DNA from: Escherichia coli
GTDB taxonomy: Bacteria; Pseudomonadota; Gammaproteobacteria; Enterobacterales; Enterobacteriaceae
Strand: one strand, 5' to 3'
Assembly: GCF_003018115.1 (NCBI RefSeq)
Contig: NZ_CP027457.1
DNA length: 64,000 bases
Below, one piece after another: positions 990 through 57,312 of the stretch (its first letter is position 1; every line of letters starts with the position of its first letter). The position numbers and the translations under genes were made by a program. The notes beneath the pieces were generated by a model that was not told where the DNA came from, searched no databases, and worked only from the letters and a program-made list of their open reading frames with translations.

Positions 990-992
990 CAA

Positions 993-2792: not shown

Positions 2793-2837
2793 TTCTCCTG
2801 ATTCTGATTTATCGCCGTGCACCTGATGGAGGAAAAA

Positions 2838-4118: not shown

Positions 4119-4225
4119 GGGGGATCTTAAGCAATCAGAAGCCAATGACTACGCATTTTTATAAGCCGGATCATGAAGTTAGACGGCAATTAAGTAACAC
4201 TAACGTTTAAGGTGAAAAGTGAAAT

Positions 4226-5878: not shown

Positions 5879-5887
5879 GGAAAATGA

Positions 5888-6490
5888 ATGGAAGCGCGAA
5901 TTTCAACTGAACGGCATGTGCAGCGCCAACAGAAATTGAAGGAACAGGTCGATACGCGCGTCGCGGCGGCGATAGAGAAAAAAGGGATCTTGATTGTTTT
6001 CACCGGCAACGGCAAAGGGAAATCCACTGCCGCGTTTGGTACTGTGACGCGCGCGGTGGGTCATGGCAAAACGGTGGGGGTTGCGCAGTACATCAAGGGG
6101 CAATGGGACAACGGCGAATACAACCTTCTCCAGCCGCTGGGGGTTGAGTTTCATATTATGGGAACCGGTTTTACCTGGGAGACACAGAACCGGCAAGCGG
6201 ATATCGACGCGGCGAAAGAGGTCTGGTCGGAAAGCAAACGGATGCTGGCTGACAAGCGTTACGACTTAGTGGTGCTTGATGAGCTGACCTATATGCTGGC
6301 TTACCATTATCTGGATACCGAAGAAGTGATCGCTTCTCTGCAAAACCGCCCGGCACAACAAAGTGTCATTGTCACCGGACGCGGTTGCCACAGTCAGATA
6401 TTAAAAATGGCAGATACGGTCAGCGAAATCCGCCCCGTCAAACATGCTTTTGATAACGGCATACAGGCCCAGCCGGGTATCGACTGGTAA
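5888..6490 (+). CDS. ATP:cob(I)alamin adenosyltransferase, BtuR/CobA paralog, 200 aa
   Basis: P-loop VFTGNGKGKSTAAFG plus GFTWETQNR and LDELTYM motifs align along the whole length with E. coli BtuR as remembered. RBS AAGG upstream of the ATG at 5888. Confidence 0.85.
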   Translation: MEARISTERHVQRQQKLKEQVDTRVAAAIEKKGILIVFTGNGKGKSTAAFGTVTRAVGHGKTVGVAQYIKGQWDNGEYNLLQPLGVEFHIMGTGFTWETQNRQADIDAAKEVWSESKRMLADKRYDLVVLDELTYMLAYHYLDTEEVIASLQNRPAQQSVIVTGRGCHSQILKMADTVSEIRPVKHAFDNGIQAQPGIDW

Positions 6491-6493
6491 TAA

Positions 6494-6520
6494 CTGCGCC
6501 TGGCATCCTGCCAGGCGCAG
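6494..6520. terminator. hairpin CTGCGCCTGGCA-TCC-TGCCAGGCGCAG between convergent genes
   Basis: Perfect 12-bp inverted repeat lying between the adenosyltransferase stop (6490) and the LysR stop (6524), followed by GTTTTA. Confidence 0.5.
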
Positions 6521-6523
6521 GTT

Positions 6524-7429
6524 TTACATCTCCTGCGGTACGACCGATTTCGCCAGCAACCATTCACGAAATTGCTGCAAGTGCGGTGAGTCAGACTTCT
6601 CTTCCTGCCACGTCATAATAAAACGATTACCGGTACGAATAGGCACATCACAGGGGATCACCATATCGCCACTATCCAAATCATGTTGAATAGCGAACCG
6701 TGGTAACAGCGCCACGCCGAGATTAGAGCGCACGGCGGCAATCAGCATTGAAAGCAAATCGAAACGTGGTCCGTTGTTGACCAGCGGACTGCTAACGCCA
6801 GATAAAGCAAACCACTCTTCCCAGCCAGTAATACGGGTGCTTTGATGCAGAAGTGGTAACTCAGTAAGCAGTTCTGCCACTGACAGTTTTTGATCGGACA
6901 TTGCAAGCAAACTGCCGCTGCATACCGGCAAAATCTCCTCATCAAAGAGATATTCTACTTCCGCCCAGGGCGCGCAAAAATTTTCGCGCATAATGACAGC
7001 ATCGTACTCCCGATTAAGAAAATCGCCGTTATTAGCTAAAGAATGAATATTAACAATAATATCGGGATGTAACTTTGTGAATTCATGTAAATTTGGGATC
7101 AACCAGTGGGTACTAAAAGTAGGATTAACGGCAAGTTCAATAACCTGAACCGTAGGCTGCCAGGTCATAATGGTATTGGTATCGCGTTCCAGCTTATTTA
7201 ATGTTTCTTTTACTATCCCCAGGTAATACTTCCCTGCATCATTAAGAAAAATGCGTTTTTTAGAGTGTGAAAATAACGGAGTACGTAAAAATTCCTCCAG
7301 CGCACTTACTTGTCTGAATACTGCACTTTGGGTTAACGCTAACTCCTCTGCCGCTCTGGTATAACTTTCATGACGTGCGACGACCTCAAAAGTCACCAGC
7401 AGTTCCGTTTTAGGTATTTTCCCTCGCAT
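6524..7429 (-). CDS. LysR-family transcriptional regulator, 301 aa
   Basis: N-terminal HTH region (LTQSAVFRQVSALEEFL) and the usual ~300 aa length. Convergent with the pathway operon. Confidence 0.85.
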   Translation of the reverse strand: MRGKIPKTELLVTFEVVARHESYTRAAEELALTQSAVFRQVSALEEFLRTPLFSHSKKRIFLNDAGKYYLGIVKETLNKLERDTNTIMTWQPTVQVIELAVNPTFSTHWLIPNLHEFTKLHPDIIVNIHSLANNGDFLNREYDAVIMRENFCAPWAEVEYLFDEEILPVCSGSLLAMSDQKLSVAELLTELPLLHQSTRITGWEEWFALSGVSSPLVNNGPRFDLLSMLIAAVRSNLGVALLPRFAIQHDLDSGDMVIPCDVPIRTGNRFIMTWQEEKSDSPHLQQFREWLLAKSVVPQEM

Positions 7430-8194
7430 AATGCCTTCCGTGAAAAAAATAACAATTCAAAAAATTATTTTATAAAAAATAGTAGTGCTAATGAATATCA
7501 TAATTCAAATAAACAAACCAGTCAGCTATATGTCCAACCAGAAAAATAAAGTGACAATAATCCTAAAACAGAAATTTCACCTCAGTTATCCGCATGCAAT
7601 ACTTTAAAGCTATTATTGCAAGAATATTATTCATATACATGAATATACTCTAAATAACTCGAGTTGCAGGAAGGCAACAAATAATGAATTTCCAGAAACT
7701 TACATAAGTCAGTGGCCAGGGTGAGCGAACATCGATGCAGAACATGCAACTTGAAGTATGACAAGTATACAATGATAAATTTAGATACCCTATGTTATAT
7801 ATTATCTATGTCTGGTTAAATTGAATGAGTCATGGCCTTAAAAGACTTCGCAAAAGATAATTTCTCTTTAACAATAAGCCAGATTTACCACTTGTAAAAA
7901 TTGCTATCGCCACATACACTACGCGCGTTTTCTTTCCCTTTTGCTGGCTGCTGACCGGAAAGACAAAATTACCCTCGCAATACAGGGGGTTTTTTAACGT
8001 CTATATTTCAGGACAGCGTTATTCATCATCTTTCAAGGCTTGATAAAGCCTTTCTGCGCAAAGGGATCCAACTTTCCCGCGCCAACAATATTGTTTCATT
8101 ATCTCGTCCATCTGGTGCCAGTGCCCGCGTACTGCTGCCGGACGAACTACCGCTGGAAGAAAAAGCAGTAACACAACTGCTTGATTTTGCAGAA

Positions 8195-9418
8195 GTGAAG
8201 CTACCAGACCACCCAGGTTATGTGCGCCAGACGTGCGCGACGCCAGATTTTCACCCCGGCAATGGCGTCCCCGTTGGCGCGGTGGTGGCCTCAACGCCGG
8301 ATTTAGTCATTCCCGCCGCCATCGGCACCGATATTTCTTGCGGCATGCGGCTGCTAACGACTGGATTAACACTTGAGCAAGCCGAAGCGAATAAAGACGT
8401 CATCACTCAGCGGTTAACGCAAGTGCTACTGCAAAATGAGCGCGATGTTCCGTTATCCGCACAAGCGTTCACTGCGCTTTTTGATGGCGGACCGGCAGAT
8501 TACGTATCGACCTTGCCATCAGCAGGTCTCTGGACACGCACGAATATCCCCCGAATGGTACAAGAGATTGACCGCTGCATTGGGCTTAACGAGCATAACA
8601 GTCATTCGCGTTATGCCCCACCCGCCCTACTGGCAACGGACCGCGCATTACTCCGCGATCCTTGTCTGGGTACGCCAGGTTCAGGTAATCATTTTATTGA
8701 ACTTCAGGTGGTTGATAGCGTGGTCGATCGCCATGTGGCCTGGCAACAAGGGCTGAAAACGGGCGATATCGTGGTGATGATCCACAGTGGATCGCGAGAT
8801 GTCGGCTTTTACGTCGGACGACGCTGGATGGACCGTGCCCGTGCTGAATGGCCCGCCGGGCATAAACACCCACAAAGCGGGTTATATGGTCTGGCTGGTG
8901 GACTGGCGGAGGAATATCTACAAGCGATGGGAATGGCGGCGCGTTACGCATGGTTAAATCGCGTGACCATTGCGGAAATGGTTCGCGTATGTTTTGCCGA
9001 TTTATTTCATCAGGATGATTCACATCTGGTGGTGGATGTGCCGCATAACATCATCCTTCGCGAACATGAAATGAATATTCATCGCAAAGGTGCAACACCG
9101 GCACACGCGGGCGCTCTGGCATTAATCCCCGGTTCAATGGGCGATTATACGTGGCTTGCGGTAGGTTGCGGCAACTCGGAGTGGTTGTGGTCATGCAGTC
9201 ATGGAGCAGGACGCAGCCAGCGTCGGCAGGCGATGCGCTCACGCGCGACTGAAGAGTCAACGCTGCCGTGGCAATGCGTCACATTGCGTGAAGAACGACG
9301 TCTTGAAGAAGCGCCAGCTGCTTATAAAGATATTGCTCCGGTTATCGAAGCCCAACAAGAAGCCGGATTGATTCAGCCTGCGGTCAGATTACGACCGTGG
9401 TTAACGTTTAAGGGGTAA
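8195..9418 (+). CDS. RtcB-family RNA ligase homolog, 407 aa from the first canonical start (GTG at 8195)
   Basis: RtcB motifs DISCGM, GSGNHFIE, HSGSRDVG, HRKGAT, SCSHGAGR. The frame stays open for 80 codons upstream (7955-8194) with no ATG, GTG or TTG, so the true start is uncertain. Confidence 0.8.
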   Translation: MKLPDHPGYVRQTCATPDFHPGNGVPVGAVVASTPDLVIPAAIGTDISCGMRLLTTGLTLEQAEANKDVITQRLTQVLLQNERDVPLSAQAFTALFDGGPADYVSTLPSAGLWTRTNIPRMVQEIDRCIGLNEHNSHSRYAPPALLATDRALLRDPCLGTPGSGNHFIELQVVDSVVDRHVAWQQGLKTGDIVVMIHSGSRDVGFYVGRRWMDRARAEWPAGHKHPQSGLYGLAGGLAEEYLQAMGMAARYAWLNRVTIAEMVRVCFADLFHQDDSHLVVDVPHNIILREHEMNIHRKGATPAHAGALALIPGSMGDYTWLAVGCGNSEWLWSCSHGAGRSQRRQAMRSRATEESTLPWQCVTLREERRLEEAPAAYKDIAPVIEAQQEAGLIQPAVRLRPWLTFKG

Positions 9419-9433
9419 CTGAAATGATAAATG

Positions 9434-9526
9434 GCCTGCGGTTCTCACGCAGGTCAAATCTGGTATCTGCGTAAGCTAACAAACTTGTTTATCAACAATT
9501 TCAGGCCATCCGAAGATGGCCTGAAA
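9434..9526. terminator. two hairpins (CCTGCGGTTCTCACGCAGG and TTCAGGCCATCCGAAGATGGCCTGAA) between convergent rtcB-like and mngB
   Basis: Inverted repeats read directly in the 145-bp gap between convergent 3' ends. Confidence 0.45.
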
Positions 9527-9562
9527 TTGTTGCCCCCCTTAGATACACTTTAAGCGCAATAA

Positions 9563-17239: not shown

Positions 17240-17415
17240 GTCACCCGTAGGCCTGATAAGACGTGTAAGCGTCGCATCTGGCATCGCTTGTCGGATGCGG
17301 CGCGAGCGCCTTATCCGACCTACATCGGTGCTTCCCGTAGGCCTGATAAGACGCGTTAAGCGTCGCATCAGGCTTCAATTGCCGGAGAAAGCAATAATGT
17401 CTTATCCGGTCTACA
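17240..17415. repeat. cluster of REP (repetitive extragenic palindromic) units in the sucB-sucC intergenic region
   Basis: Repeated GCCTGATAAGACG...CGTCGCATC(A/T)GGC and GCCGGATGCGGCG...CCTTATCCG palindromic units. Confidence 0.7.
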
Positions 17416-21647: not shown

Positions 21648-21768
21648 ACGCCTGATGCGCTGCGCTTATCAGGCCTACGGGTAATGACTTGTAGGCCGGA
21701 TAAGGCATTCACGCCGCATCCGGCACTGGTTGCCTGATGCGACGCTTGCGCGTCTTATCAGGCCTACG
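21648..21768. repeat. REP units in the sdhB-sucA intergenic region
   Basis: Palindromic GCCTGATGCG/CGCATCCGGC-type units read directly. Confidence 0.65.
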
Positions 21769-32413: not shown

Positions 32414-33460
32414 ATGCCAGTTTTGCAGTGGGGAATGTTATGTGTGCTATCACTTCTCCTTTCTATTGGTTTCCTCGCGGTACATCTCCCGGCGGCATTA
32501 TTACTTGGGCCGATGATCGCCGGGATCATCTTTAGTATGCGCGGGGTTACCCTGCAACTCCCCCGCTCCGCTTTTCTCGCCGCGCAGGCCATTCTTGGCT
32601 GCATGATTGCGCAAAACTTGACCGGTTCGATCCTGACCACGCTGGCGGTTAACTGGCCGATTGTGTTAGCTATTTTACTGGTGACGTTGCTTTCCAGCGC
32701 TATCGTGGGATGGCTACTGGTGCGCTATAGCTCACTGCCCGGAAATACTGGTGCCTGGGGCTCCTCGCCTGGCGGGGCGGCGGCAATGGTCGCGATGGCG
32801 CAGGATTACGGCGCAGATATCCGCCTGGTGGCGTTTATGCAGTATCTGCGAGTGCTGTTTGTCGCGGGGGCCGCAGTTCTGGTCACGCGAATGATGCTGG
32901 GCGATAACGCTGAAGCGGTTAACCAGCATATCGTCTGGTTCCCGCCAGTGAGCATTAATCTCCTGCTTACTATTTTGCTCGCGGTCGTTGCCGGTACAGT
33001 GGGATGCCTGCTGCGTCTTCCTTCCGGCACGATGCTCATCCCGATGCTTGCGGGCGCAGTGCTCCAGTCTGGTCAGCTCATCACCATCGAACTACCGGAA
33101 TGGCTGCTGGCGATGGCGTATATGGCAATTGGCTGGCGGATTGGTCTTGGTTTCGATAAACAAATATTACTGCGGGCATTGCGCCCACTGCCACAAATCC
33201 TGCTGTCGATTTTTGCTCTGCTGGCTATTTGTGCGGGTATGGCGTGGGGACTGACCCGGTTTATGCACATTGATTTTATGACTGCCTACCTCGCCACCAG
33301 CCCCGGCGGGCTTGATACCGTGGCGGTCATCGCCGCAGGGAGCAATGCCGATATGGCGCTCATTATGGCGATGCAAACCCTGCGCCTGTTCAGTATTTTG
33401 CTGACTGGGCCTGCCATTGCACGGTTTATTTCGACCTATGCGCCGAAGCGGTCGGCCTAG
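32414..33460 (+). CDS. abrB: AbrB-family membrane protein (putative regulator), 348 aa
   Basis: Start placed at MPVLQWGML; polytopic hydrophobic protein; synteny with nei. Confidence 0.8.
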
Positions 33461-34248
33461 TGCTGGCAGCCTGGACACCAGTAAAACGGGCGCGAGGACA
33501 ACGTGGTTTTCTCAATGATGCCGCCACAGCGTTCGCACAGTTCGCCATCACGATGAAAAACCTTAAAGCGAAACAGCGCCCCATGATGCTTATTCTCATC
33601 CACCTGCCCCCGCGTAGCGTAAGAAAATCGAGGAATCTCCAGTAACGCGTGTGCGAGTGCATCCAGTTGCGCCGCATTGAGATCTTTCGCTTTATGATTT
33701 CCAGTCAACCCAACCTGCCAGAGGATCTCCACCCGCAAATAATTGCCAAGTCCTGCCAGAAACGCCTGATCGAGCAGTAATCCAGCAAACTGACGGTTAC
33801 GAAAGCGCGGCGACAATAACCGTTCTTTCACCACCTCCGGCGTCAGATTCGGATCCAGCACATCGGGACCAACGCGTTGTAAAAACGGATGCGTGGTCAG
33901 TTGTTCCGGCCTCAACATCTCAATATCCGAGGCGCTATAAAGCAGAATGGTTTTGTCAGCCGTTTGCAGTTTTACCCGCAATACTCGCGTGGTCTGCGAC
34001 TCTTCGCCGGTATCAACCACGCGCCAGACGCCATAAAGCTGATTATGGCTGTAGAGCGTTAAGTCGTTGGAAAAATGAGTTAACAACGCCTTACCACGCG
34101 TTTCCACATGGGTAACGTGTTGACCGATAAGTTGTGATTGATAAGTTTTTAACTGCGGGAAGGCAAACCAGACATCAGTTAGTGGTTTGCCTTTGATCGC
34201 CGCCTCCAGGTTATCCGCTGCACGGCGGATCTCCGGGCCTTCAGGCAT
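33457..34248 (-). CDS. nei: endonuclease VIII (DNA glycosylase/AP lyase), 263 aa
   Basis: N-terminal [18 protein letters not shown] (Fpg/Nei catalytic P2-E3) and C-terminal zinc finger [25 protein letters not shown]. Confidence 0.9.
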
Positions 34249-34283
34249 GGTGATATCCTTTTTTCATTCTTTATTAATCGGGG

Positions 34284-35018
34284 TTATGCTGCGACAACAA
34301 TCCCCTTTTCGGCAAATGCAGAGCGTAGTCGGCGGGCGAACGCCAGTGCGTGCTCGCCGTCGCCATGCAGGCAGACCGTTTGCGCCGTGACCGTTGCCCA
34401 TTCGCCGGTGATACTTTTGACTCTGCCGTGTTGCACCATCTCCAGCGTTTGCGCCAGCGCCTGTTCTTCGTTTTCAATCAACGCGCCTGACTGGCTTCGC
34501 GGCACCAGCGAGCCGTCAGCCTGATAACCGCGATCGGCAAACACTTCCTCGCGCGTTGTCAGACCATATTGCTTGCCTGCACGAATCAGCTCGCTTCCTG
34601 CCAGCCCGACGAGAATCAATGCCGGATCGCAAGCGTATACCGCTCTGGCGATGACGTCTGCCAGTTGTGCTTCTTTCGCCGCCTGGTTGTACAACATGCC
34701 GTGCGGTTTGACATGACGCATTACGCCGCCTTGCGCACGGGCAATCGTTGCCAGCGCGCCAATTTGATACAGCGTCTGGGCGTAAACGGTTTCTGGCGGC
34801 AGCTGCATAGCGCTGCGACCAAAATTTTCCCTGTCGGGAAAACTCGGATGAGCGCCAATCGCGACACCATTTTTTATTGCTTCACGCACGCAAGCCTGCA
34901 TGGTTTGCGCATCGCCTGCATGAAATCCACAGGCAATATTGGCAGAGGAAACCAGCGTTAATAGCTCTGCGTCACTGGTGCAGCCTTCGCCCAGATCGGC
35001 GTTCAGGTCAATTTTCAT
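34284..35018 (-). CDS. pxpA: 5-oxoprolinase subunit A (LamB/YcsF family), 244 aa
   Basis: [13 protein letters not shown]-terminus typical of LamB/YcsF; overlaps pxpC. Confidence 0.85.
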
Positions 35019-35940
35019 TGTGCAGCCGCCACGCTAATTGTTCGAAATAACGTTGCTGATCTTGCCGCGCTTTCAGTGCCTCTTCCAGTGAACACTGGAC
35101 AAAATGAATCGGCTGACCGAGCGGAATTTGCGCCAGATGGTACATATCAGCCTCAATGATACAGGCAATACGCGGGTAACCACCGGTGGTCTGTGCGTCG
35201 TTCATCAACACAATGGGCTGCCCGTTATGTGGCACCTGCACCACGCCCGGTAACAAACCGTGAGATAACAGTTCGCGATCGGTGGTGCGTTTTAAAATTT
35301 GCCCCTGTAAGCGATAGCCCATGCGGTTACTTTGCGGGCTAAGCTGCCAGGGCGAACGCCAGAATGCATCCTGCGAGGCGCGATCGAACTCATGATATTC
35401 CGGCCCCGGCAAGGCGCGAATGCGGTTGCCCCACAGCAGCTGTTTAACGCCTTGCGCTTCCATAAAATCACGCTTCGCTTTGCCAATCGGGAGCCGGTCA
35501 CCATCCCTCAGTAAACGGCCTTCCAGCCCGCCAATCCCCACTTTGAGATCGGTGCTGCATGATCCCATTACCGGCGGAACATCAATACCACCCGCGACCG
35601 CCAGATAACTGCGCATCCCGTGCTGCGGGCGTTTAAGCGTTAAACGCTGGCCTGCTTTCATCGGCAATCGCCAGCCGGTCCAGACGGCATTATCATCCAG
35701 CCGCGCTTCGCAACCGGCACCCGTCAGAGCAAACCACCCATCAGTTTCGAACTCAACCGTTAACTGACCGAGCGTGATCTCCAGCGCGGGGGCATTGGCG
35801 TCATTACCCACCAGCAGGTTAGCAATGCGTAACGCAGGCATATCCAGTGCGCCGCAGTGGCTGATACCCGACTGGCGAAAACCGTGACGACCGCCATCTT
35901 GCACAGTGGTATACATGCCCGCACGAATAATCTTCAGCAT
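35008..35940 (-). CDS. pxpC: 5-oxoprolinase subunit C (allophanate hydrolase subunit 2-like), 310 aa
   Basis: Size and position between pxpB and pxpA; overlaps both neighbours. Confidence 0.85.
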
Positions 35941-36590
35941 ACTCCCTCCTTTTGCGGAACAAAGCGCACGCTGTCTCCCGGACGTAATAAGATGGGTTCG
36001 TCACGCGCCGGATCAAACAGGCTGAGTGAGGTATGACCAATCAACTGCCAGCCACCCGGCGTTGCCAGCGGATAAACACCAGTCTGAGGCCCGCCGATCC
36101 CGACAGAACCTGCCGGAACGAGCAAGCGCGGTTCAGCGCGCCGTGGCGTGTGTAGTTGTTCCGGCAAACTCCCGAGATACGGGAAGCCCGGTTGAAAACC
36201 TAAAAACCAGACCACGTATTCCACGGAGGAGTGCAATTCAACAACCTGTTTTTCGCTCAACCCGCAATGCGCCGCGACCACCGCCAAATCCGGTCCGCCT
36301 GCACCACCGTAAACCACCGGAATTTCAATAAAGCGAGACTCAGGTTCCAGGGCCTCGCTCTCCTCCCACCAGCGTTGCAAACGCTCTATGGCATCCAGCG
36401 CCAGCGACTCAGGATTACGCAAAATCACCGTGATATTGTTCATGCCGGGAATGGCTTCAACCACATTCGGCATATCCACCAGACGCTGCGCCAGTCGCCA
36501 GATCCGTTTCTGGCTAGCCAGCGTCACCGGCGGTTCCAGTTCCAGCACTACCGCCGTTTCACCTATCAGATAACAACGCGCTCGTTGCAC
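35934..36590 (-). CDS. pxpB: 5-oxoprolinase subunit B (allophanate hydrolase subunit 1-like), 218 aa
   Basis: Size and operon position. Confidence 0.85.
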
Positions 36591-36612
36591 TTTCGATCCC
36601 TCTGATTATTCG

Positions 36613-37356
36613 TTATGCAGGATTAGGAATATCAATAAAAGTCACATCAAGATCGGTATTTTCATTCAGCCACTCGCTCAATGCGCGAATACCACCACGT
36701 TCAGTGGCATGGTGACCTGCAGCATAAAAATGCAATCCCTGCTCGCGGGCTGAATGAATGGTCTGTTCAGAAACTTCGCCAGTAATAAAAGCATCCACGC
36801 CAAAACGCGCGGCGCTATCGATAAAACTTTGCCCGCCGCCCGTGCACCAGGCGACGCGCTGGACCACCTCAGGTCCGGTATCGCCACACCATAACGGCTT
36901 ACGTCCCAGACGCGCTTCAATCCAGGAAGCCAGCTCCAGTCCCGGCACAGGCATGGTCAGCTCTCCCCACGGCACCAACGGCTCAATTTCGCCCATGACC
37001 GTGATCCCCAGTAACGCCGCCAGCTGTGCGTTATTGCCCAGCTCAGGATGTGCGTCAAGCGGCAAATGCCAGCCATACAGGTTGATATCATTTGCCAGCA
37101 ACGTTTTTAAACGGTTACGCTTCATGCCGCGAATGACCGGAGATTCACCTTTCCAGAAGTAGCCATGATGCACAATGACCGCATCCGCGCCCAGACGCAC
37201 TGCCTCATCGAGCAAAGCCTGGCTGGCAGTGACACCGGTAACAATTTTTTGCACCGTCTCTTTGCCTTCCACCTGCAAACCATTCGGCGCGTAATCACTA
37301 ATCGCCGCGCTGTTCAGTTTTTCGTTAATCAGTTGTTCCAGTTCGGTGTTTTTCAT
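36613..37356 (-). CDS. ybgI: NIF3-family metal-binding protein, 247 aa
   Basis: Size and synteny upstream of pxpB; HHGYFWKG-type motif. Confidence 0.85.
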   Translation of the reverse strand: MKNTELEQLINEKLNSAAISDYAPNGLQVEGKETVQKIVTGVTASQALLDEAVRLGADAVIVHHGYFWKGESPVIRGMKRNRLKTLLANDINLYGWHLPLDAHPELGNNAQLAALLGITVMGEIEPLVPWGELTMPVPGLELASWIEARLGRKPLWCGDTGPEVVQRVAWCTGGGQSFIDSAARFGVDAFITGEVSEQTIHSAREQGLHFYAAGHHATERGGIRALSEWLNENTDLDVTFIDIPNPA

Positions 37357-37443
37357 CTTCGCGCCTTCCGTATTCTGATAGCTACACCGTTAACATAGCG
37401 TTACCTCGCCTGTTCGTCGATAGCCAATCTTTTGACATATTAA

Positions 37444-39108
<1,665 letters not shown>

Positions 39109-39119
39109 TAGGCCAGCAC

Positions 39120-39235
39120 CGATGCCTGATGCGACGCTTGACGCGTCTTATCAGGCCTACGTATTTCCTGCAATTTATTGAATTTGCACAAATTTGTAGG
39201 CTGGATAAGGCGTTCACGCCGCATCCGGCATCTGG
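39120..39235. repeat. REP units between dtpD and phr
   Basis: GCCTGATGCGACGCTTG...CGTCTTATCAGGCCTAC and GTAGGCTGGATAAGGCG...CGCATCCGGCA palindromes. Confidence 0.65.
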
Positions 39236-39257
39236 GCTCGATTGCCTGACGCGTCTG

Positions 39258-40676
39258 TTATTTCCCCTTCCGCGCCGCCTCATACGCTGCCAACGTTTGT
39301 ACTCTCGCCTCTTTGTGCTCGACTATCGGTTGCGGATAATCCAGCTTCACACCTGCTTTCTCAGCCCACTTCCACGGCTCATGCACCACTTTCCCTGGCA
39401 CATCGCGCAGTTCCGGTAGCCACTGGCGGATAAACTCGCCTTCGCGGTCAAATTTCTCGCCCTGGGTTGTCGGGTTGAAAATACGAAAATACGGCGCTGC
39501 ATCAGTACCCGTAGAAGCCGCCCACTGCCAGCCACCGTTATTGGCTGCCAAATCACCATCAATCAGCTGCGACATGAAATATCGCTCGCCTTCGCGCCAG
39601 TCGATCAATAAATCTTTCACCAGAAAACTGGCTGTAATCATCCGTAGCCGGTTATGCATCCAGCCAGTGCTATTAAGCTGACGCATGGCAGCATCGACAA
39701 TCGGGTATCCCGTTATGCCTTCCTGCCAGGCCTTTAAATGGGCGGGATTGCTTTGCCACTGTACACGATCCGTCCAGGCAATAAATGGACGATGTTTACA
39801 CAACGAGGGGTAATACGTCATCAGATGACGGTAGAACTCGCGCCAGATCAGCTCATTAAGCCAGACACTACCGGCCCCACCGTCCAGCGCCTGCGGCTGT
39901 TCCGCCAACAAGCGATGCAAACACTGGCGAGGCGATAACCCGCCCGTTGCCAGGCTGGCGGACAAACGACTGGTGCCTTCCACTGCCGGAAAATCTCGTT
40001 GTTGCTCATATTCTCCGGCACCGTTCTGGCAAAACTGGCGTAATTGCGCAATCGCCGCTTTTTCTTCCACCGGGAAATGCGCAGTATCGAAAGACTGACG
40101 AGGATAATTCAGCGTAATGGATGGCGCGGGCTTTATCGATCCGCTACTACGAACTTTTGGTGCAGCGACGCACTCCGGCATCCCTTCCCGCAGCCGTTTC
40201 AGCCAGGCATTCTTAAAAGGCGTAAAGACTTTGTACATCTCATGATTGCCGGTCATCACCGCGCCAGGCGGCAGGATCACGCTGTCATCAAATCCTTCAC
40301 ACACCACGTTACGCAGCGCTCTTTCAACTTCCACATCCCGCGCCCGCTCATTCACCTCATACTGATAGTTATAAAAAAGATGAGTAACGCTGTTTTCCGC
40401 GCACACCTGTTTAATTATTTCGACGCTGGCGGCAAAGTCATCCACTTCACGGAACAATAAAGGAATACCTTTTTCCGCCAGCGCGATTTGTAGCCCGTTC
40501 AGTTGAGCATTGATAAGTTCAGCCTGACGCGGCGACATATTATGCGCCGCCCACTGGCGTGGTGTAGCGATATACAACGCCAGCACGCGTGCAGACGAAT
40601 TGCGACAGGCGGCAGCCAGCGCGAGATTATCGTGCAGACGTAAATCCTGGCGAAACCAGACCAGATGAGTAGTCAT
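39258..40676 (-). CDS. phr: deoxyribodipyrimidine photolyase, 472 aa
   Basis: MTTHLVWFRQDLRLHDNLAL N-terminus and FAD-binding C-terminal half; overlaps the ybgA stop. Confidence 0.9.
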   Translation of the reverse strand: MTTHLVWFRQDLRLHDNLALAAACRNSSARVLALYIATPRQWAAHNMSPRQAELINAQLNGLQIALAEKGIPLLFREVDDFAASVEIIKQVCAENSVTHLFYNYQYEVNERARDVEVERALRNVVCEGFDDSVILPPGAVMTGNHEMYKVFTPFKNAWLKRLREGMPECVAAPKVRSSGSIKPAPSITLNYPRQSFDTAHFPVEEKAAIAQLRQFCQNGAGEYEQQRDFPAVEGTSRLSASLATGGLSPRQCLHRLLAEQPQALDGGAGSVWLNELIWREFYRHLMTYYPSLCKHRPFIAWTDRVQWQSNPAHLKAWQEGITGYPIVDAAMRQLNSTGWMHNRLRMITASFLVKDLLIDWREGERYFMSQLIDGDLAANNGGWQWAASTGTDAAPYFRIFNPTTQGEKFDREGEFIRQWLPELRDVPGKVVHEPWKWAEKAGVKLDYPQPIVEHKEARVQTLAAYEAARKGK

Positions 40677-41182: not shown

Positions 41183-41355
41183 TACTGCTCCTGAACGGTT
41201 TACAGGAGTAAGTGTAGACGATGGTAAATGAATTTTGTGGGGTTATGCTTTCTTCCCTACCAAGCTGTTATATCCAGTTCAAAAACAATCATTTTACATC
41301 ATCATCAAAGCAGCGAATACTTGACCGATTGGTAGTACCGCTGCATATTTCACCA

Positions 41356-41613
41356 TCAATTATATTTTATAATTTGTTGTATTGCTGACTTTATATTGCC
41401 AATGACATCCTCATCATTAAATTCATTTAATATATTTTTTAGAATAGGATGTAGTTTAATATCACCTAAAATACCTGCCGAAATAATCACTTCATCAAAA
41501 ATTATGTTTTTTTGCAGTTCATAAATTATAGCAGTTATAACACGATTATCTTTTCTTTCTGCCAGTCCGCTTATAGCTTCAATTCTGGCACAATCATTCT
41601 TATCTGTCAGCAT
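41356..41613 (-). pseudogene. 85-codon ORF with HEAT-like repeat character; possible remnant of a gene disrupted by the adjacent H-repeat element
   Basis: Starts 13 nt after the H-repeat ORF stop, in a different frame, with no convincing RBS. Repeat-like AISGLAE.../ILGDIKLHPILKNIL pattern. Weak call. Confidence 0.25.
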
Positions 41614-41625
41614 TCCAGGGCAAGA

Positions 41626-42762
41626 TTACGAAAGCCCGCTCCCCGCAAGGACTGACGCCAGATAGTTTCTGTCCATGGCTGCTTTTCGCATCTTACGTCT
41701 TAACCCTGCCTTGAATACCTTATCATTCGTCAAAATATTAATAGCAATGTGCCGTATCCCTGAAAATAATTCTGCTGCATTTCCTCTTCTTATCTTGCAG
41801 TCGTCTTCATTCATTACCACGTCCAGACGCCAGTGCAGCTTATTCTCCACGTGCCAGTGGTTTCGGATTGCTGTGGCGAACTTCTCTGCGGTTAAATCAG
41901 CAGAACTGATATAATATCTGACCGTCATTTCTGGTTCTTTCTTTTGTTCTGCTATTATGGACCGAAAGGAGACTGCCACGCATAATTTCTTCAGCCCTTT
42001 CCATTCAAACGTGAAATCAATAAGTTCATAAGGGACATCGCAAACAATATGAAGACGGATCTCTTCTCTGCCGTGACTCTTTTCACTGATTGCGTAACTG
42101 TCATGCTCTGGATTATTTAATTCTTTCAGCGGAAATTTTTCCTCAAAGGCTTTATTTAGCCGCCCCTGGTTTCCTTTTACCGCGAATAAATAATCACCTC
42201 CCTGTTTTTGTATCTTCTCTGCAATATCTTTCTGGCAACCCATCGCATCAGTTGTGATGATTTTTCCTTTAATATCCAGCATGTTAAGAAGTTCTGGGAT
42301 AGCTGTAATCTCATTAGATTTCTCATCCGTCTTGATCTGTCCGATGACCAGACTGTGCATTGTTGAGAACGCACTAATGACATGAATCGCTCCCCTGCGG
42401 CGACTCTTGTCATAAGAGTGCCGGAGCGTTTTTCCATCAATTGCAATGACGTCTTTATCATCTGAAGAATGGCAGTCACGCATCCAGTTAATAAAGCACT
42501 CGTGAAATTTTGCAGGACTGATACAGGATACAACTCTGGCAATGGTATCGTGAACAGGAATACCATTTTCAAAATCACCATATTGCTTCAAAAAATCGAG
42601 ATGTGTTTCCCCAAAATCCTCTATATCTTCCCAGCCTTCTGCACCAGAAATAACGGCACAAATAGTCAACAGTAGAATATCAGATAATTTATGTTCCACT
42701 TTCCAGGCTTGTCTGTAATCAGGGATAAGAGAAATATGTTCCATCAATTTTTTAAGCTCCAT
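41626..42762 (-). mobile_element. H-repeat (ISAs1-family) transposase-like ORF, 378 aa, of the kind found beside Rhs elements
   Basis: [64 protein letters not shown] is the H-repeat protein N-terminus as I recall it; sits between ybgA and the Rhs locus. Confidence 0.85.
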
Positions 42763-43420
42763 TTTGTTCTCCTTAATTATGTAAGGAGTATTTGATCATG
42801 TATAAGCAATAAAAAACAGCTTCAGGTAATGAGGAATATCTCAATTTTTAAACATAAAATGCGAATTATTTAGTACAAAAAGTGAACTTCTGATGATCTT
42901 TCCCTGTGATTGCTTCCCGTTTCCCGATACGGCGGCGCGGGGAGTCATAAAGGTAAGAAATTTCCAGCAGTACGGCGTCCTATTGTTCACGGCGGTAATG
43001 CACCAGCCAGTATTGGCTATCGTAGTGATAACCGTGTAACCTGCCGCCGCATCGCGTATCTAATGTTCATTCTTTTCCATAAACCGTCCGTACACATTGT
43101 GATAGTAAAAATACAATACATCTTCGCTGATGCGGTTATTCTGCTGCATGTGGGAAGCGCCGAATACTGCTCCCGGTATGGCCAGTAATTACTATTTAGT
43201 ACGACGTTAGGGGGAGTCACTTAATCTCACAGATACTTCAAGTAACAGATGAAAATCGCTCCTGAAATGAAAAAAGAATTTTTTTTGAATGTGTTTCTGT
43301 CAAATCAAGTGGTTTTTTCGTCGATATGTAGAGTCATATTGTACACAAAATAGTTACGAAACACACCTTGGTAAAATATTTGAATCGACTGTACAGTGGA
43401 TTATTTTGTGTGTATTACAT

Positions 43421-43675
43421 TCAACACTTGCCCATCTTTTTCGCTATTAGTATTGTAAAATTTCCTCCTAACGTCTTCGGTTGTTTTCCCTCGATTTTCC
43501 AACAATTATTGTCATCTGTAATACTATATGGTTTCTGAAATTCTGCTTTTTCTTTCCCGTATACATATTTAATGTAAACATATGATAATTCCAAAGCCAT
43601 TTCACGACTATTTACTAAAATTTCCACAGGATTTTCTTTTCCAAATACTGAGTGTGATATTGTAAACAATATCAT
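43421..43675 (-). CDS. small hypothetical protein, 84 aa; candidate orphan immunity protein
   Basis: ORF directly downstream of a short toxin-like open frame (about 43712-43849, minus strand) in the Rhs-associated AT-rich region. No family recognised. Confidence 0.3.
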   Translation of the reverse strand: MILFTISHSVFGKENPVEILVNSREMALELSYVYIKYVYGKEKAEFQKPYSITDDNNCWKIEGKQPKTLGGNFTILIAKKMGKC

Positions 43676-43870
43676 AATAAGTAATATTAGTGAGTTTCTC
43701 GTGTTCTACACCTATCGAATCTCAAAAGTTGTGGGTAAAACATTACATTCAGAATATATGATATTCTTACCATCGGAATCCATTTTTCCAAATCGACCTT
43801 CTGGTGTACCTGGATATCCATTAAGAACATGTTTTTCCGAATGGTTAATTTATTTTCTCAGGAAGATGTT

Positions 43871-44440
43871 TTATTTTTCTTCACTACGAAGCAGTTCATG
43901 CTGTATTTTTGTTAAACATTCGTAAGACTCATCTTTGTTCGGGAGATGTGCTGTCATTCGAGCATAAGTTGGCTTCTCATCTTTAAAATATTTAACCATG
44001 ATTGAATTATCAAGGACTGCCAACAACTGAGCTGGATCACTGCTCTTTTTTTGATAGATACCCGCTCTTATATAACTTCTAAACCGATCGCCGAGAAACG
44101 CCGTTTTTTCTGCTGTATTTATCAACTCCTGCAACGTTCCTTTGATGGTATGATTTTCATTAAGGCGTAGTGACCCGACGCGAATTAAGAGTCTCGCCCC
44201 GCTTGGTGTGAATTTATTATTTTTACATGTGCCCAGTTCTGTTTGCCAATAATACTCACCGATGTCCTCATTCTGATACCATCTCCACATGGCTTTATTA
44301 TTTAAGACAGGAAACGCGGAAAAAATAGTACCCTTAGCGAAAATAGTAAAACAATCATGATCTTTAGCTTGTATTTCGCAATCAGCTATAACACCAAAAC
44401 TAACAAATATCATCAGCAAAAAGAACAAAACTCTTTTCAT
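43871..44440 (-). CDS. Rhs immunity candidate with a Sec signal peptide, 189 aa (YbfC-like)
   Basis: Starts inside the last codons of the Rhs gene (4-nt overlap). N-terminus [21 protein letters not shown] is a classical signal peptide with a V-I-A cleavage motif. Confidence 0.6.
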
Positions 44441-47400
44441 TTTCTTATTCCTCTCGATGTTCTCTGTTTCATTTTAGCTAAAATTTCACCCAAATCATCT
44501 ATCCCTGCTGTTGCTGGCCCATCGGGTTTATTAATGTCTGGGAATAAATAGGGTTCTGCACAAGTATATCCTGGTGGTAATTGAGTTGTTGGCCAATTTG
44601 TCTGTGGCAGGTAATCACTTGCTGTCTTTGTATCCATCCCTGGATACTGGGGATCATCCTGTGGCGTACAAGTCAGATTTGGTTTTACCCACTTCCTGCA
44701 ATACAGTGTGTAGTCGTAAGGGCTTAATACTCTGAAGAATGTTTTGAAAACATTAGGCGCACTACTGGCCTGGTCAATAGGATATGGCAGTCTTAATTGT
44801 TTCGCTATGTCTGGCAATTTACTTGGATCGGGCGTAGGCGGTTTGTTGGGTCTCGCTCCATATCCGCCATTATTTAAGTGTCCATATTTTGATGCCAGTC
44901 CCATTGAATCTATATACTGAACCGGATTCAACGGATACTGATAAAAATTCCATCCCCCCTTCAGTCCAATCGGATCCTGAGTGATATATCGCCCCTGCAG
45001 CGGGTCATAATAGCGGTGGCGGTTGTAATACAGGCCGGACTCCTCATCATACTGCTGCCCCGGCAGGCGGATAAGCTGCTGCAGCTGATGCGGGTTCTCT
45101 TCATTCAGCAGGTTGCCCCACTCATCGTATTCTGCGCACCATTCTGTTGCCCCTTCCGTGCTGATAAGCACCAGCGGCAGGCCGCGATGGTCGCAGTGGT
45201 ACAGGTGAATTTTTCGCGCCGGCGTGTACACCGGGTCCAGCTGGTTTTGCATCTGCTTCACCGTCAGGCCGCACGATGCCAGCCAGCGGCGGCTTTCCTC
45301 ACTCACCCGGTCAGCCAGGATTTCACTTTCCAGCCGGTCGAGCATCTGCACCAGCACCGGCGGGAACACCACACTGCCACCGTCTTCGCCGCCGGACTGC
45401 TGAAGCGCATCCGCCAGGCTGCGGCGCTGCGTTTTCGCCAGCTCACCGGTGGCGGTTTCAACCCTGATGAGTGGCGTGAAGCTCCCCGGCTGATAAATCG
45501 TCTGGATGCGGGTTCTGTCGTTCTGTATTGTGGTCAGCCGGTCGCCGTCCCAGCCGTACCAGGTCACTTGCGGTTTCCGTGACAGCGACATCCAGCCCGT
45601 CAGGTCCCGTTCACGTCGCCACACCCGTTTTGCCACCCTGCGGCCCAGCGGGTCGTAAAGATAGCGACTTTCGACCAGCGGCTCTGCATATTGTGTCCGC
45701 GTGTAGTGCACCAGCCGGTGCTGACTGTCGTAATGGTACCGGTGGGTGCGCTCATCATCCGTGCGGATAACCCCTTCCGGGATGAGGTCGGTTTTCTCTG
45801 TCAGTCTGCCGTGACGGTCATACCGGTAAAGATAGTGCGCGTCACGGGCGATACGGTTATCCGGCCACATGCTGAGGGTGCTGTCCGGGTGCAGCTCCGG
45901 GTCGGGCAGGCGGTTACCTGCCGGGTCTGTGGCATACGGGATGCGGATATCCAGAGTTGAGGTGGTGGTGTGAACGCCGGTCAGCCTGCCGGTGGTGCTG
46001 TAGCTGTAACTCCGGGTATGGCGCGGGCTGCTGATGCGGATGAGTTCGCCGTTGTCGTTCCAGGTGTAATCGCGGTCATACTGCAGGCTGTTCAGGTGCT
46101 GACGCTGTAACTGCCCGGCAGGGGTGTAAGCGGTGGTGAGTTCATAACGGCCGAAGCTGCGCAGCGTTTCCCGGTGCAGGCGGTCGCGGGTGAAATCCAC
46201 CAGCGGTGTGTCGCCGAGCTTCATGCCTGCCAGGTAACCGCTGCCGTAGGCCAGCCATTCCACGGCGGGCAGGCTGTCCGGTATACAGCGGTTCGCCAGT
46301 CCCTGCGCGTTGTACGCATGTCTGGTCTCATGCTGCCAGAGCAGTGCTTCCGTCTGCGGGTGATGCACCGTCTGACGCTCACCGGTCAGCCGGCCTTTCT
46401 CATCATACCCGTAATGCACCGTCACCCGGTGCCCTTCGCTGATATGGCTGATGTCTGTCAGCCAGCCGCGTTCGTCGTACCGCCACCGCTCTGCGGTTTC
46501 ACCCTTCACGGTGCGCTGCGTGAGGCGGTCTGCTTCGTCATAGTGCCAGTGGGTGACCAGCCCCTCATCCTCGCTGCGGATAAGTTTGCCGGTCAGGTCG
46601 TGGTGATAACGCTGTGTGCGGCCGTCAAAGCCGGTTTCCTGTATCAGCCGGTCGAGTACATCGTAACGGAAGGTGGTGTGGCTGCCGTTTTCACTGGTCA
46701 GGCGGATGACCCGTCCGGCAGCATTGTATTCCATACTGCGCGTCAGACCGCCCTGCGTGGTACGGATGGCCTTTCCCCACGCATCGTACTGTGTCCCGTT
46801 TCTGCTGCCGTCCGGGGCAATGACGGCGGTCAGGTCACCGGCGATGTTGTATTCATACCGCATTTCATGGCCCTGCATGTCTTTCACCGCAATTAACTGT
46901 CCACGGCTGTCGTATGCACGGTACTGGCTCAGCCCTTCCTCGCGGTGCACCGCCGTCATCTGCCCGAAGCGGTCATGGTCATAACGGGTTACATAACCGG
47001 AACAGTCGGTGAAGCTCAGCAACTGGCCGTAACGGCTCCATGTCATGGTTTTCCGGCTGCCGGTGGCATCGTCCGTTGCGCAGGGTAAGTCACTGTGTGG
47101 ATTATCATAACGGTAGCGGGTGATATCGCCGTTGTGTGCAGTTTCCTGAATCAGACGGCCCAATTCATCATATTCCCGGCGTATTTCCAGCCCGTCTGGC
47201 CCGGTGGCTGACGTTAACTGGCTGTGGTGGTTATAGTAAAACGCCGATGCCCTGCCATCCGGCGTGGTGATGCGCGTGATGAGTCCCGTCACCACATCCG
47301 GGCTGTACTCAGTCGTCCGGCCTGCGGCATCCGTCTGTGCCTTAAGCCTGCCCACCGCGTCAAACTGACTCTGCGTGACGCTGCCGTCCGCGTGTTCCTT

Positions 47401-56489: not shown

Positions 56490-57163
56490 CAAACGTTCTG
56501 ATTGTTGAAGATGAACAAGCTATTCGTCGCTTTCTGCGCACGGCGCTGGAGGGCGACGGGATGCGCGTCTATGAGGCCGAAACGCTGCAACGCGGCTTGC
56601 TGGAAGCGGCTACCCGTAAGCCAGATTTGATTATTCTCGATCTCGGCCTGCCCGATGGTGATGGGATTGAGTTTATCCGCGACCTGCGCCAGTGGAGCGC
56701 GGTGCCGGTGATTGTGCTTTCCGCACGCAGCGAAGAGAGCGACAAAATCGCCGCGCTGGATGCCGGAGCTGATGATTACCTGAGTAAGCCGTTTGGCATT
56801 GGCGAATTGCAGGCCCGTCTGCGCGTCGCCTTACGCCGCCATTCAGCCACCGCCGCACCCGATCCGCTGGTGAAATTTTCCGATGTGACCGTCGATTTAG
56901 CCGCCCGCGTGATTCACCGGGGTGAGGAAGAGGTGCATCTTACGCCAATTGAATTTCGCCTGCTGGCGGTGCTGCTCAACAATGCCGGAAAAGTGCTCAC
57001 CCAGCGCCAACTCCTTAACCAGGTATGGGGGCCAAACGCGGTCGAACACAGTCACTATTTGCGTATTTATATGGGACATCTGCGACAAAAACTGGAACAG
57101 GATCCCGCCCGCCCCCGCCATTTCATTACTGAAACCGGTATTGGTTATCGGTTTATGCTTTAG
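56486..57163 (+). CDS. kdpE: OmpR-family response regulator KdpE, 225 aa
   Basis: Receiver domain with DLIILDLGLPDGDG and a winged-helix C-terminus; 4-nt overlap with kdpD. Confidence 0.95.
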   Translation: MTNVLIVEDEQAIRRFLRTALEGDGMRVYEAETLQRGLLEAATRKPDLIILDLGLPDGDGIEFIRDLRQWSAVPVIVLSARSEESDKIAALDAGADDYLSKPFGIGELQARLRVALRRHSATAAPDPLVKFSDVTVDLAARVIHRGEEEVHLTPIEFRLLAVLLNNAGKVLTQRQLLNQVWGPNAVEHSHYLRIYMGHLRQKLEQDPARPRHFITETGIGYRFML

Positions 57164-57171
57164 GCGGTTAA

Positions 57172-57312
57172 ATGCTGGATCCGGCGTGAACGCCTTATCC
57201 GGCCTACAAAATAGCTTAAATTCAATAAATTGCACCATCCTCGCAGGCCTGATAAGCATAGCGCATCAGGCAGTCATAAGTAAAAAAGGGCGATCTTGCG
57301 ACCGCCCTTTTT
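57172..57312. repeat. REP units (57172-57272) followed by a bidirectional terminator hairpin AAAAAGGGCGATCTTGCGACCGCCCTTTTT (57283-57312) between kdpE and pgm
   Basis: Palindromic GGCGTGAACGCCTTATCCGGCCTAC / GCAGGCCTGATAAGCATAGCGCATCAGGC units and a GC hairpin flanked by A- and T-runs. Confidence 0.6.

Follow-up and report, generated by a model that had tools for sequence, protein, structure and literature searches.

The ATP-dependent conversion of 5-oxoproline to glutamate by the three-subunit enzyme PxpABC was described by Niehaus et al. (2017), according to the summary in PMC13274462, which also outlines the roles of PxpA, PxpB and PxpC. In Escherichia coli K-12, the genes for these subunits lie in the series ybgI-pxpB-pxpC-pxpA-nei (ybgIJKL-nei). 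An operon table gives 'nei,ybgI,ybgJ,ybgK,ybgL' as one unit (PMC4448311), and nei is called a terminal operon gene in the title of Gifford and Wallace (2000). In a split-GFP assay, YbgJ and YbgK assembled when expression relied on the native polycistron with its internal ribosome-binding site (PMC3790201).

Clusters containing the same three subunit families are also found in other phyla, including Corynebacterium glutamicum, Bacillus subtilis and the distant loci L007-L014 of our comparison set. In these clusters pxpB always stands directly before pxpC, usually overlapping it, as it does in the window (the whole 64,000-nucleotide stretch of E. coli DNA, from contig NZ_CP027457.1, that was analysed here). 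Unlike in the window, pxpA comes first in C. glutamicum pxpTABC and B. subtilis pxpA-ycsG-...-pxpB-pxpC (PMC13274462). In other phyla, ybgI and nei are never among the partner genes, which are pcp or encode transporters (of the Nramp type or DUF969/DUF979); these clusters also come with regulators of their own, whereas in E. coli no regulator lies next to the cluster. In Thermus thermophilus, PxpB and PxpC are fused in a single chain (TTHA0988, PDB 3OEP) whose domain order, CT_C_D followed by CT_A_B, corresponds to the gene order across a 7-nt overlap in the window, although the window has two out-of-frame overlapping genes in place of one polypeptide.

Among closer relatives, the ybgI-pxpBCA-DUF969-DUF979-pcp-nei clusters of Citrobacter, Salmonella and Klebsiella have the flanks seen in the window (phr, dtpD on the opposite strand, and ybgI), the same 7- and 11-nt overlaps and nei as the last gene, and in Citrobacter and Salmonella abrB is convergent downstream, again as in the window. 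They differ in approximately 2.45 kb, absent from the window, that encodes a 5-oxoproline transporter and pyroglutamyl peptidase.

Gene Content and Identity of the Locus

The window contains five co-directional genes between dtpD and abrB, listed here in the order of transcription:

36613-37356, minus strand: ybgI, 247 aa, ATG start, TAA stop; first gene of the operon
35934-36590, minus strand: pxpB (ybgJ), 218 aa, GTG start, TGA stop; 5-oxoprolinase subunit B
35008-35940, minus strand: pxpC (ybgK), 310 aa, ATG start; 5-oxoprolinase subunit C
34284-35018, minus strand: pxpA (ybgL), 244 aa, ATG start; 5-oxoprolinase subunit A, LamB/YcsF family
33457-34248, minus strand: nei, 263 aa; endonuclease VIII, terminal gene of the operon

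The initial annotation had placed ybgI, pxpB, pxpC and pxpA on the minus strand at 34284-37356, in exact agreement with the open reading frames, and had called the unit pxpABC-ybgI, a name that does not follow the transcription order ybgI, pxpB, pxpC, pxpA, nei.

All five proteins score above curated equivalog cut-offs. YbgI matches Pfam PF01784 with 225 bits over residues 1-246 and NCBIfam NF008064 with 531.6 bits (cut-off 414); it has a full-length DUF34_NIF3 domain in the YbgI-type architecture, without the inserted YqfO-like domain, and aligns end to end with PDB 1NMO (E 1e-168). The three PxpABC families are all present and clustered, with pxpB immediately before pxpC: PxpB belongs to CT_C_D (PF02682, 245.9 bits; TIGR00370, 355.6 bits, cut-off 145.55), PxpC to CT_A_B (PF02626, 317.7 bits; NF045499, 595.8 bits, cut-off 500) and PxpA to LamB/YcsF (PF03746, 315.7 bits; NF003812, 511.8 bits, cut-off 378). 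There are structural matches as well, PxpA aligning with 1XW8 (YbgL; E 3.5e-156), PxpB with chain B of 5DUD over its full length (E 5.7e-147) and PxpC with chain A of the same entry (E 1.6e-213; 4 residues differ). Since 5DUD holds YbgK together with YbgJ, PxpB and PxpC have been solved as one complex. Nei reaches 503 bits against NF007763 (cut-off 252) and matches PF01149, PF06831 and PF06827, that is, it has the Fapy_DNA_glyco, H2TH and zinc-finger domains, with the N-terminus MPEGPEI (Pro2-Glu3) and a C-terminal CxxC...CxxC zinc finger (CERCGG...CPGCQH). Within the operon there are also antisense ORFs of 101-134 aa on the plus strand, which have no Pfam match and were treated as shadow ORFs. 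The ybgI-pxpBCA pattern of four genes is not due to chance, considering that Pfam and NCBIfam scores are far above the cut-offs and that the overlap lengths recur across genera.

Comparison with K-12 and Other E. coli Genomes

The K-12 reference was the RefSeq annotation of an MG1655 derivative, in which the same four genes from ybgI to pxpA occupy the same relative coordinates. Order, strand, lengths, start codons and both overlaps are those of the window, and both spacers are identical in sequence, so that the two operons differ by strain-level substitutions only. DNA identity is 98.4-98.9% per gene for ybgI, pxpB, pxpC and pxpA and 97.7% for nei, with 57 nucleotide differences over the five genes and no indels; the intergenic region between dtpD and ybgI carries a single SNP, at 37411. 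YbgI and PxpB are the same proteins as in K-12, while PxpA, PxpC and Nei show 4, 4 and 5 amino-acid changes, respectively. Low identity to the K-12 ybgI-ybgJ-ybgK-ybgL genes, which would have spoken against the initial annotation, was thus not found, and its assignment of the locus to the core genome holds as well, the locus being found in 5424 of 5426 complete E. coli genomes. What the window carries here is almost certainly the ybgI-pxpB-pxpC-pxpA-nei operon already known from E. coli (formerly ybgIJKL-nei), a standard part of the core genome; it has been described before and holds no surprise.

Operon Extent, Promoter and Terminators

The unit had initially been described as a four-gene operon. 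However, nei follows pxpA on the same strand after only 35 nt, and a terminator scan found no terminator-like site in this spacer or in the 22-nt spacer between ybgI and pxpB. The scan of the region returned 12 sites (6.2 ± 3.0 expected), and those on the minus strand were only weak matches, all within coding sequence. Together with the five-gene entry in PMC4448311, these observations extend the unit by one gene and suggest, from literature and sequence, a single transcript of five genes that ends at nei. At the downstream border, nei and abrB are convergent and their stop codons overlap within the palindrome CTAG (33457-33460), leaving no intergenic space there for a terminator.

As sequence and literature together indicate, the most likely start of transcription is in the 270-nt intergenic region between dtpD and ybgI, from where it would read through all five genes. 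The consensus promoter scan, with a threshold of 9 of 12 positions, returned no minus-strand site upstream of ybgI. A candidate that matches 8 of the 12 consensus positions is suggested by conservation across three genera:

37392-37420, minus strand: candidate sigma-70 promoter for ybgI; -35 TCGACG (37420-37415), 17-nt spacer, -10 TATGTT (37397-37392)

The blocks CTATCGAC and TATGTTA of this putative promoter are invariant in the alignment of the dtpD-ybgI intergenic region from E. coli, Salmonella and Klebsiella.

Junctions between the Subunit Genes

According to the initial annotation, the genes from ybgI to pxpA follow one another with 7- and 11-nt overlaps. This is correct for two of the three junctions. 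The pxpB and pxpC genes share 7 nt (ATGCTGA, 35934-35940) and the pxpC and pxpA genes 11 nt (ATGAAAATTGA, 35008-35018), both out of frame, whereas between ybgI and pxpB there is a gap of 22 nt (36591-36612, cgaataatcagagggatcgaaa) that contains a moderate Shine-Dalgarno sequence (GAGGG; anti-SD energy -6.3 kcal/mol). The start of pxpC sits in the last codons of pxpB, and its strong Shine-Dalgarno sequence, GGAGG, is located inside the pxpB coding sequence, with a duplex energy of -12.1 kcal/mol that falls in about the top 1% of operon 20-mers. Among the five genes, the weakest Shine-Dalgarno sequence is that of pxpA, -4.8 kcal/mol (background mean -3.1, sd 2.4), and the 35-nt spacer between pxpA and nei (34249-34283) contains AAGGA as the Shine-Dalgarno sequence of nei.

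Conservation of these junctions was followed in a small comparison set of six Enterobacteriaceae genera, E. coli included, and six distant loci; a search for encoding contigs had given 13 loci. In the homologous-protein search, the matches listed all belonged to Enterobacteriaceae with at least 74% identity, and the distant relatives came from a representative search. PxpC homologues with biotin-lipoyl domains (P0243, P0181 and P0251) were set aside as members of a biotin-dependent branch. The 7-nt overlap of pxpB and pxpC is kept in all six Enterobacteriaceae genera, reading ATGTTAA in Klebsiella with both proteins unchanged, and the 11-nt overlap of pxpC and pxpA in Cronobacter, Klebsiella, Salmonella, Citrobacter and Intestinirhabdus; PxpC identity among genera with the same overlap lengths is 74-88%. 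At the distant loci the B-C-A order is mostly overlapping too. Two of the ten B|C junctions in the set are short gaps (+1 and +10 nt), so members of the family can do without the B|C overlap; at the C|A junction, an overlap is present in all eight cases examined. Both overlaps thus coincide precisely with the boundaries between subunit genes and persist from genus to genus. In addition, natural fusion proteins join CT_C_D with CT_A_B (B-C) and CT_A_B with LamB_YcsF (C-A) in the same order as the genes, although frameshifts or gene-calling errors might have produced those that come from metagenome assemblies, and a solved structure is available only for the Thermus fusion.

Short co-directional gene overlaps are common in bacterial operons, and the two overlaps might be neutral by-products of genome compaction, with independent ribosome-binding sites and no role in subunit balance. 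The very strong Shine-Dalgarno sequence that pxpC has of its own and the small B|C gaps at two distant loci agree with such an origin. However, it would not readily account for exact overlap lengths where PxpC itself has diverged, for Klebsiella changes that preserve both frames, for the weakness of the pxpA Shine-Dalgarno sequence, for the consistent C|A overlap, or for fusions at exactly these two junctions, and we consider it rather unlikely, though deserving of some weight. From these junctions we may reasonably infer that synthesis of the 5-oxoprolinase subunits would be tightly coupled. The overlaps had been linked to the 5-oxoprolinase complex from the start, and between pxpB, pxpC and pxpA this link stands; it does not extend to ybgI, whose product belongs to NIF3/DUF34 and is not a subunit.

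Missing Transporter and Peptidase Genes

In Citrobacter, Salmonella and Klebsiella, pxpA and nei lie 2449-2472 nt apart, and the intervening sequence encodes DUF969, DUF979 and Peptidase_C15; DUF969/DUF979 is reported to be a 5-oxoproline transporter (PMC12795558). This DUF969-DUF979-pcp block is absent from the window and from all 5426 complete E. coli genomes searched. The 35-nt spacer of E. coli can be aligned with the end of Salmonella pcp together with the pcp|nei spacer of that genus, at a score reached by 1 of 2000 shuffles, and it is probably a scar from loss of the block. The E. coli cluster would then be a reduced form, from which DUF969-DUF979 and pcp were lost between pxpA and nei.

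Place of ybgI and nei in the Cluster

YbgI is a NIF3/DUF34 metal-binding protein and not a 5-oxoprolinase subunit. In the other genera the gap between ybgI and pxpB is 13-22 nt and the GTG start always comes next. A position of ybgI next to pxp was found only in the six Enterobacteriaceae genera sampled, and none of the distant pxp loci with a visible upstream side has a NIF3 gene. It appears that ybgI and nei accompany pxp in Enterobacteriaceae only.

One explanation for their presence is that ybgI, nei and the upstream phr form the core of a DNA-damage cluster into which the pxp module was inserted as a passenger. In Cedecea and Cronobacter, ybgA-phr-ybgI-pxpBC are co-directional and phr and ybgI are just 10-15 nt apart, the RefSeq product name of YbgI is 'radiation resistance protein YbgI', and the gene content from pxpC or pxpA to nei varies among genera. 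However, the invariant part of the cluster is ybgI-pxpB-pxpC, and in this small sample ybgI was not found adjoining nei without pxp in between, which makes this origin improbable. It is also conceivable that YbgI loads the metal site of PxpA, which is metal-dependent, or the zinc finger of Nei, so that the linkage would reflect a real dependency and not a historical accident; this idea derives from the proposal, made elsewhere, that DUF34/NIF3 proteins act as metal chaperone or insertase, and we regard it as very improbable here.

That the four genes form an operon of their own, with ybgI as part of the pxpABC group and all four products made together for the 5-oxoprolinase complex, is extremely improbable: although all six Enterobacteriaceae genera examined have ybgI directly upstream of pxpB, 13-22 nt away and in the same orientation, the ybgI|pxpB junction is a gap, nei follows pxpA without a terminator and is placed in the same unit by the literature, distant pxp loci with a visible upstream side lack a NIF3 gene, the enzyme is described with three subunits (PMC13274462), the pxp COG numbers are not mentioned in the main text of the comparative study of DUF34, and one E. 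coli strain that lost ybgI to an IS1A element retains pxpBCA-nei intact.

Proposed Function and Significance

In the five-gene reading preferred here, pxpB, pxpC and pxpA would encode the prokaryotic ATP-dependent 5-oxoprolinase, in which the PxpB-PxpC complex presumably phosphorylates 5-oxoproline, with PxpA presumably opening the ring to yield glutamate. Translation of pxpC would make use of the strong Shine-Dalgarno sequence embedded in pxpB, while pxpA, with the weakest one, probably depends on ribosomes that finish pxpC. As the outer genes, ybgI (NIF3/DUF34 metal-binding protein) and nei (DNA glycosylase) are set off by ordinary 22- and 35-nt spacers. Because the transporter and pcp block appears to have been lost in E. 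coli, PxpABC probably only clears 5-oxoproline that is formed internally.

The locus is otherwise an expected core-genome structure whose boundary is moved to five genes ending at nei, and its value is a modest comparative one. Considering that its relatives have a transporter and a pyroglutamyl peptidase which E. coli lacks, the arrangement fits a role of PxpABC in internal metabolite repair in E. coli, and not in feeding on 5-oxoproline.

Gene layout and conservation of the locus

The ORF list for window positions 32500-39500 contains exactly the four minus-strand reading frames that had been delimited in the initial annotation as a pxpABC-ybgI operon, and a fifth gene, nei, follows 35 nt past pxpA:

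36613-37356, minus strand, ybgI, 247 aa, ATG start
35934-36590, minus strand, pxpB (ybgJ), 218 aa, GTG start
35008-35940, minus strand, pxpC (ybgK), 310 aa, ATG start
34284-35018, minus strand, pxpA (ybgL), 244 aa, ATG start
33457-34248, minus strand, nei, 263 aa

The sequence and a junction script show that pxpB and pxpC share 7 nt (ATGCTGA) and that pxpC and pxpA share 11 nt (ATGAAAATTGA), as initially described, whereas ybgI and pxpB do not overlap and are separated by a 22-nt spacer. Plus-strand ORFs of 101-134 aa within the operon had no Pfam match and were treated as shadow ORFs of GC-rich genes.

The locus is already known, and nothing new is found in it here. A megablast search with window 34200-37650 detected it in 5424 of 5426 complete E. 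coli genomes at 97-99.9% identity (one copy on a plasmid, two genomes without it), which bears out the core-genome status assigned to it. In a K-12 MG1655 derivative (RefSeq annotation), nei, pxpA, pxpC, pxpB and ybgI occupy exactly corresponding coordinates. Base-by-base comparison with K-12 revealed no indels across the five genes and a clearly high DNA identity (ybgI 98.9%, pxpB 98.9%, pxpC 98.4%, pxpA 98.8%, nei 97.7%); YbgI and PxpB are identical proteins, PxpA and PxpC carry four substitutions each and Nei five. Both the 22-nt and the 35-nt spacers are identical to K-12, and the 270-nt intergenic region upstream of ybgI has one SNP. In E. coli FDAARGOS_943 (comparison locus L015, 6445-7142), IS1A has taken the place of ybgI, the intergenic region common to ybgI and dtpD, and the dtpD 5′ end, leaving pxpBCA-nei intact but without its normal upstream region.

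Other differences from K-12 were observed elsewhere in the window. About 9.5 kb beside mngB (1-9559) have no K-12 counterpart there, where K-12 has cydAB and tol-pal next. This segment codes for a methylaspartate ammonia-lyase (truncated at the edge of the window), an AtuA-like protein, a sodium:dicarboxylate symporter, a class I fumarase-like hydratase, a corrinoid adenosyltransferase, a LysR regulator and RtcB, and resembles an accessory island that would degrade glutamate through methylaspartate. At 57161-57173, approximately 5.7 kb of K-12 are missing (speFL, speF, potE, a kdpE-like fragment, a DUF2625 pseudogene and a lipoprotein gene). The kdpE end at 57020-57161 has a second K-12 match, at 89%, in the kdpE-like fragment, so the K-12 speFL-speF-potE segment is bracketed by direct repeats. 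The stretch at 41240-45940, with ISAs1 transposase remnants and the tail of rhsC, shows rearrangement and partial duplication compared with K-12. Three Rfam matches were above the gathering score:

39153-39195, minus strand, ES036 (CssrF), between dtpD and phrB
17250-17320, minus strand, naRNA4 (REP-derived), suc/sdh region
21694-21764, plus strand, naRNA4 (REP-derived), suc/sdh region

Protein families and structures

All five proteins exceed the curated Pfam and NCBIfam cut-offs:

YbgI: Pfam DUF34_NIF3; NCBIfam NF008064, 531.6 bits (cut-off 414)
PxpB: Pfam CT_C_D; NCBIfam TIGR00370, 355.6 bits (cut-off 145.55)
PxpC: Pfam CT_A_B; NCBIfam NF045499, 595.8 bits (cut-off 500)
PxpA: Pfam LamB_YcsF; NCBIfam NF003812, 511.8 bits (cut-off 378)
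Nei: Pfam Fapy_DNA_glyco, H2TH and zinc finger; NCBIfam NF007763, 503 bits (cut-off 252)

PDB entry 1XW8, annotated as 'ybgL', matches PxpA, and the two chains of 5DUD, A ('YbgK') and B ('YbgJ'), match PxpC and PxpB, respectively; hence, the products of the two genes that meet at the 7-nt overlap have been crystallised as a complex. Association of YbgJ and YbgK has also been reported in a split-GFP study, in which the native polycistron was used with its own internal ribosome-binding site (PMC3790201). Thermus TTHA0988 (PDB 3OEP), whose N-terminal half matches PxpB and C-terminal half PxpC, is a natural PxpB-PxpC fusion in the order of the E. coli genes.

YbgI has a full-length match in 1NMO (E 1e-168). 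A role in 5-oxoprolinase had been implied for its gene; however, the enzyme is described with three subunits (PMC13274462, which also summarises the subunit roles and B. subtilis phenotypes), and YbgI is not one of them. In a comparative study of DUF34 (PMC8469502), the family is proposed to act as a metal chaperone or insertase, YbgI is shown not to replace FolE, and pxp COG numbers are absent from the main text. The RefSeq product name is 'radiation resistance protein YbgI'. Cedecea and Cronobacter have phr (photolyase) 10-15 nt ahead of ybgI on the same strand, which places ybgI between two DNA-repair genes, an arrangement that could be either meaningful or a historical accident.

Extent of the operon and a candidate promoter

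According to the spacer sequences and published accounts, the operon comprises five genes ending at nei, not the four first proposed. No terminator-like site was found by a site scan in the 22-nt ybgI|pxpB or the 35-nt pxpA|nei spacer, 'nei,ybgI,ybgJ,ybgK,ybgL' is tabulated as a single operon (PMC4448311), and Gifford & Wallace (2000, NAR 28:762) state in their title that the gene for endonuclease VIII is transcribed at the end of an operon, as its terminal gene. A modest Shine-Dalgarno sequence (AAGGA) precedes nei. The convergent genes nei and abrB end inside the palindrome CTAG (33457-33460) with overlapping stop codons and zero intergenic space; with no intergenic terminator, transcription of nei must continue into abrB in antisense orientation.

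A consensus promoter scan upstream of ybgI reported no site. Alignment of the dtpD-ybgI intergenic region of E. coli, Salmonella and Klebsiella revealed two invariant blocks, from which a candidate ybgI promoter, agreeing with the consensus at 8 of 12 positions, may be inferred:

37420-37392, minus strand, -35 TCGACG (37420-37415), 17-nt spacer, -10 TATGTT (37397-37392)

A 14-nt block at 37500-37513 (TGCATAAATATACA on the minus strand) is invariant in the same three genera; read on the plus strand (TGTATATTTATGCA), it may serve dtpD as an extended -10 element or be bound by a regulator.

Overlapping junctions and probable translational coupling

Thirteen loci were fetched via PxpC homologues for comparison. 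In Cronobacter, Klebsiella, Salmonella, Citrobacter and Intestinirhabdus, ybgI directly precedes pxpB with a gap of 15-22 nt, pxpB starts with GTG where read, and the overlaps are exactly 7 and 11 nt. The Klebsiella 7-nt overlap is ATGTTAA instead of ATGCTGA with both proteins unaltered, as would be expected if both reading frames were constrained. Cedecea keeps the 7-nt overlap; at the Cedecea davisae locus (L005, 5001-6743), nei comes 18 nt after pxpC in the order ybgI-pxpB-pxpC-nei, and pxpA is absent, being either encoded elsewhere or lost, in which case PxpBC would be left without a partner. The order pxpB-pxpC-pxpA also occurs in six distant loci (38-53% PxpC identity), with junctions of -4/-4, -14, -23, -4/-14 and -7 (negative values are overlaps) and two short pxpB|pxpC gaps (+1 and +10). 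Near pxp in these six loci, neither nei nor, where the upstream side was visible, a NIF3 gene was found; pxp is accompanied there by an Nramp transporter gene, DUF969/DUF979 or pcp. Among representative protein matches, CT_C_D+CT_A_B fusions (P0197, P0234, P0265) and a CT_A_B+LamB_YcsF fusion (P0203) are joined at exactly the two overlapping junctions, although fusions taken from metagenomes could have arisen as artefacts of assembly or gene calling. Taken together, the junctions across genera, the distant loci and the fusions support the view that the overlaps belong to the enzyme module, with ybgI and nei as lineage-specific outer genes. The link initially drawn between the overlaps and 5-oxoprolinase stands; they fall between subunit genes and are conserved across genera.

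Anti-Shine-Dalgarno duplex energies over the 20 nt ahead of each start codon were -12.1 (pxpC), -6.3 (pxpB), -5.7 (ybgI), -5.4 (nei) and -4.8 kcal/mol (pxpA), against a background of 20-mers of the operon with a mean of -3.1 (sd 2.4; approximately 1% at <= -10). The very strong pxpC site, GGAGG, is embedded in the end of pxpB, and pxpA, with the weakest site of the five genes, has its ATG 8 nt ahead of the pxpC stop codon. Most likely, pxpB translation would open the pxpC ribosome-binding site and ribosomes finishing pxpC would restart on pxpA, so that the subunits may be made in linked amounts.

A reduced gene cluster in E. coli

The distance between pxpA and nei is 2449-2472 nt in Citrobacter, Salmonella and Klebsiella, compared to 35 nt in E. 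coli, and the additional block codes for DUF969, DUF979 and Peptidase_C15 (pyroglutamyl peptidase, pcp). Intestinirhabdus has DUF969 and DUF979 at this position, and Cronobacter a MarR-type gene, DUF969, DUF979 and DUF2891. The Salmonella block had no match in any complete E. coli genome by sensitive blastn. When window 34249-34283 was compared with the loci L011 (6658-9117), L010 and L016, the E. coli spacer aligned to the very end of Salmonella pcp together with the pcp|nei spacer (1 of 2000 shuffles reached the score), and alignments to Klebsiella and Citrobacter were weak. The Salmonella alignment suggests that the 35-nt spacer may be a deletion scar keeping the pcp tail. DUF969/DUF979 has been proposed as a 5-oxoproline transporter, and a C. 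jejuni mutant without it was unable to use 5-oxoproline (PMC12795558). Thus, E. coli keeps 5-oxoprolinase without the adjoining uptake and peptide-release genes of Citrobacter, Salmonella and Klebsiella, which fits a role of the E. coli enzyme in the repair of internally formed 5-oxoproline.
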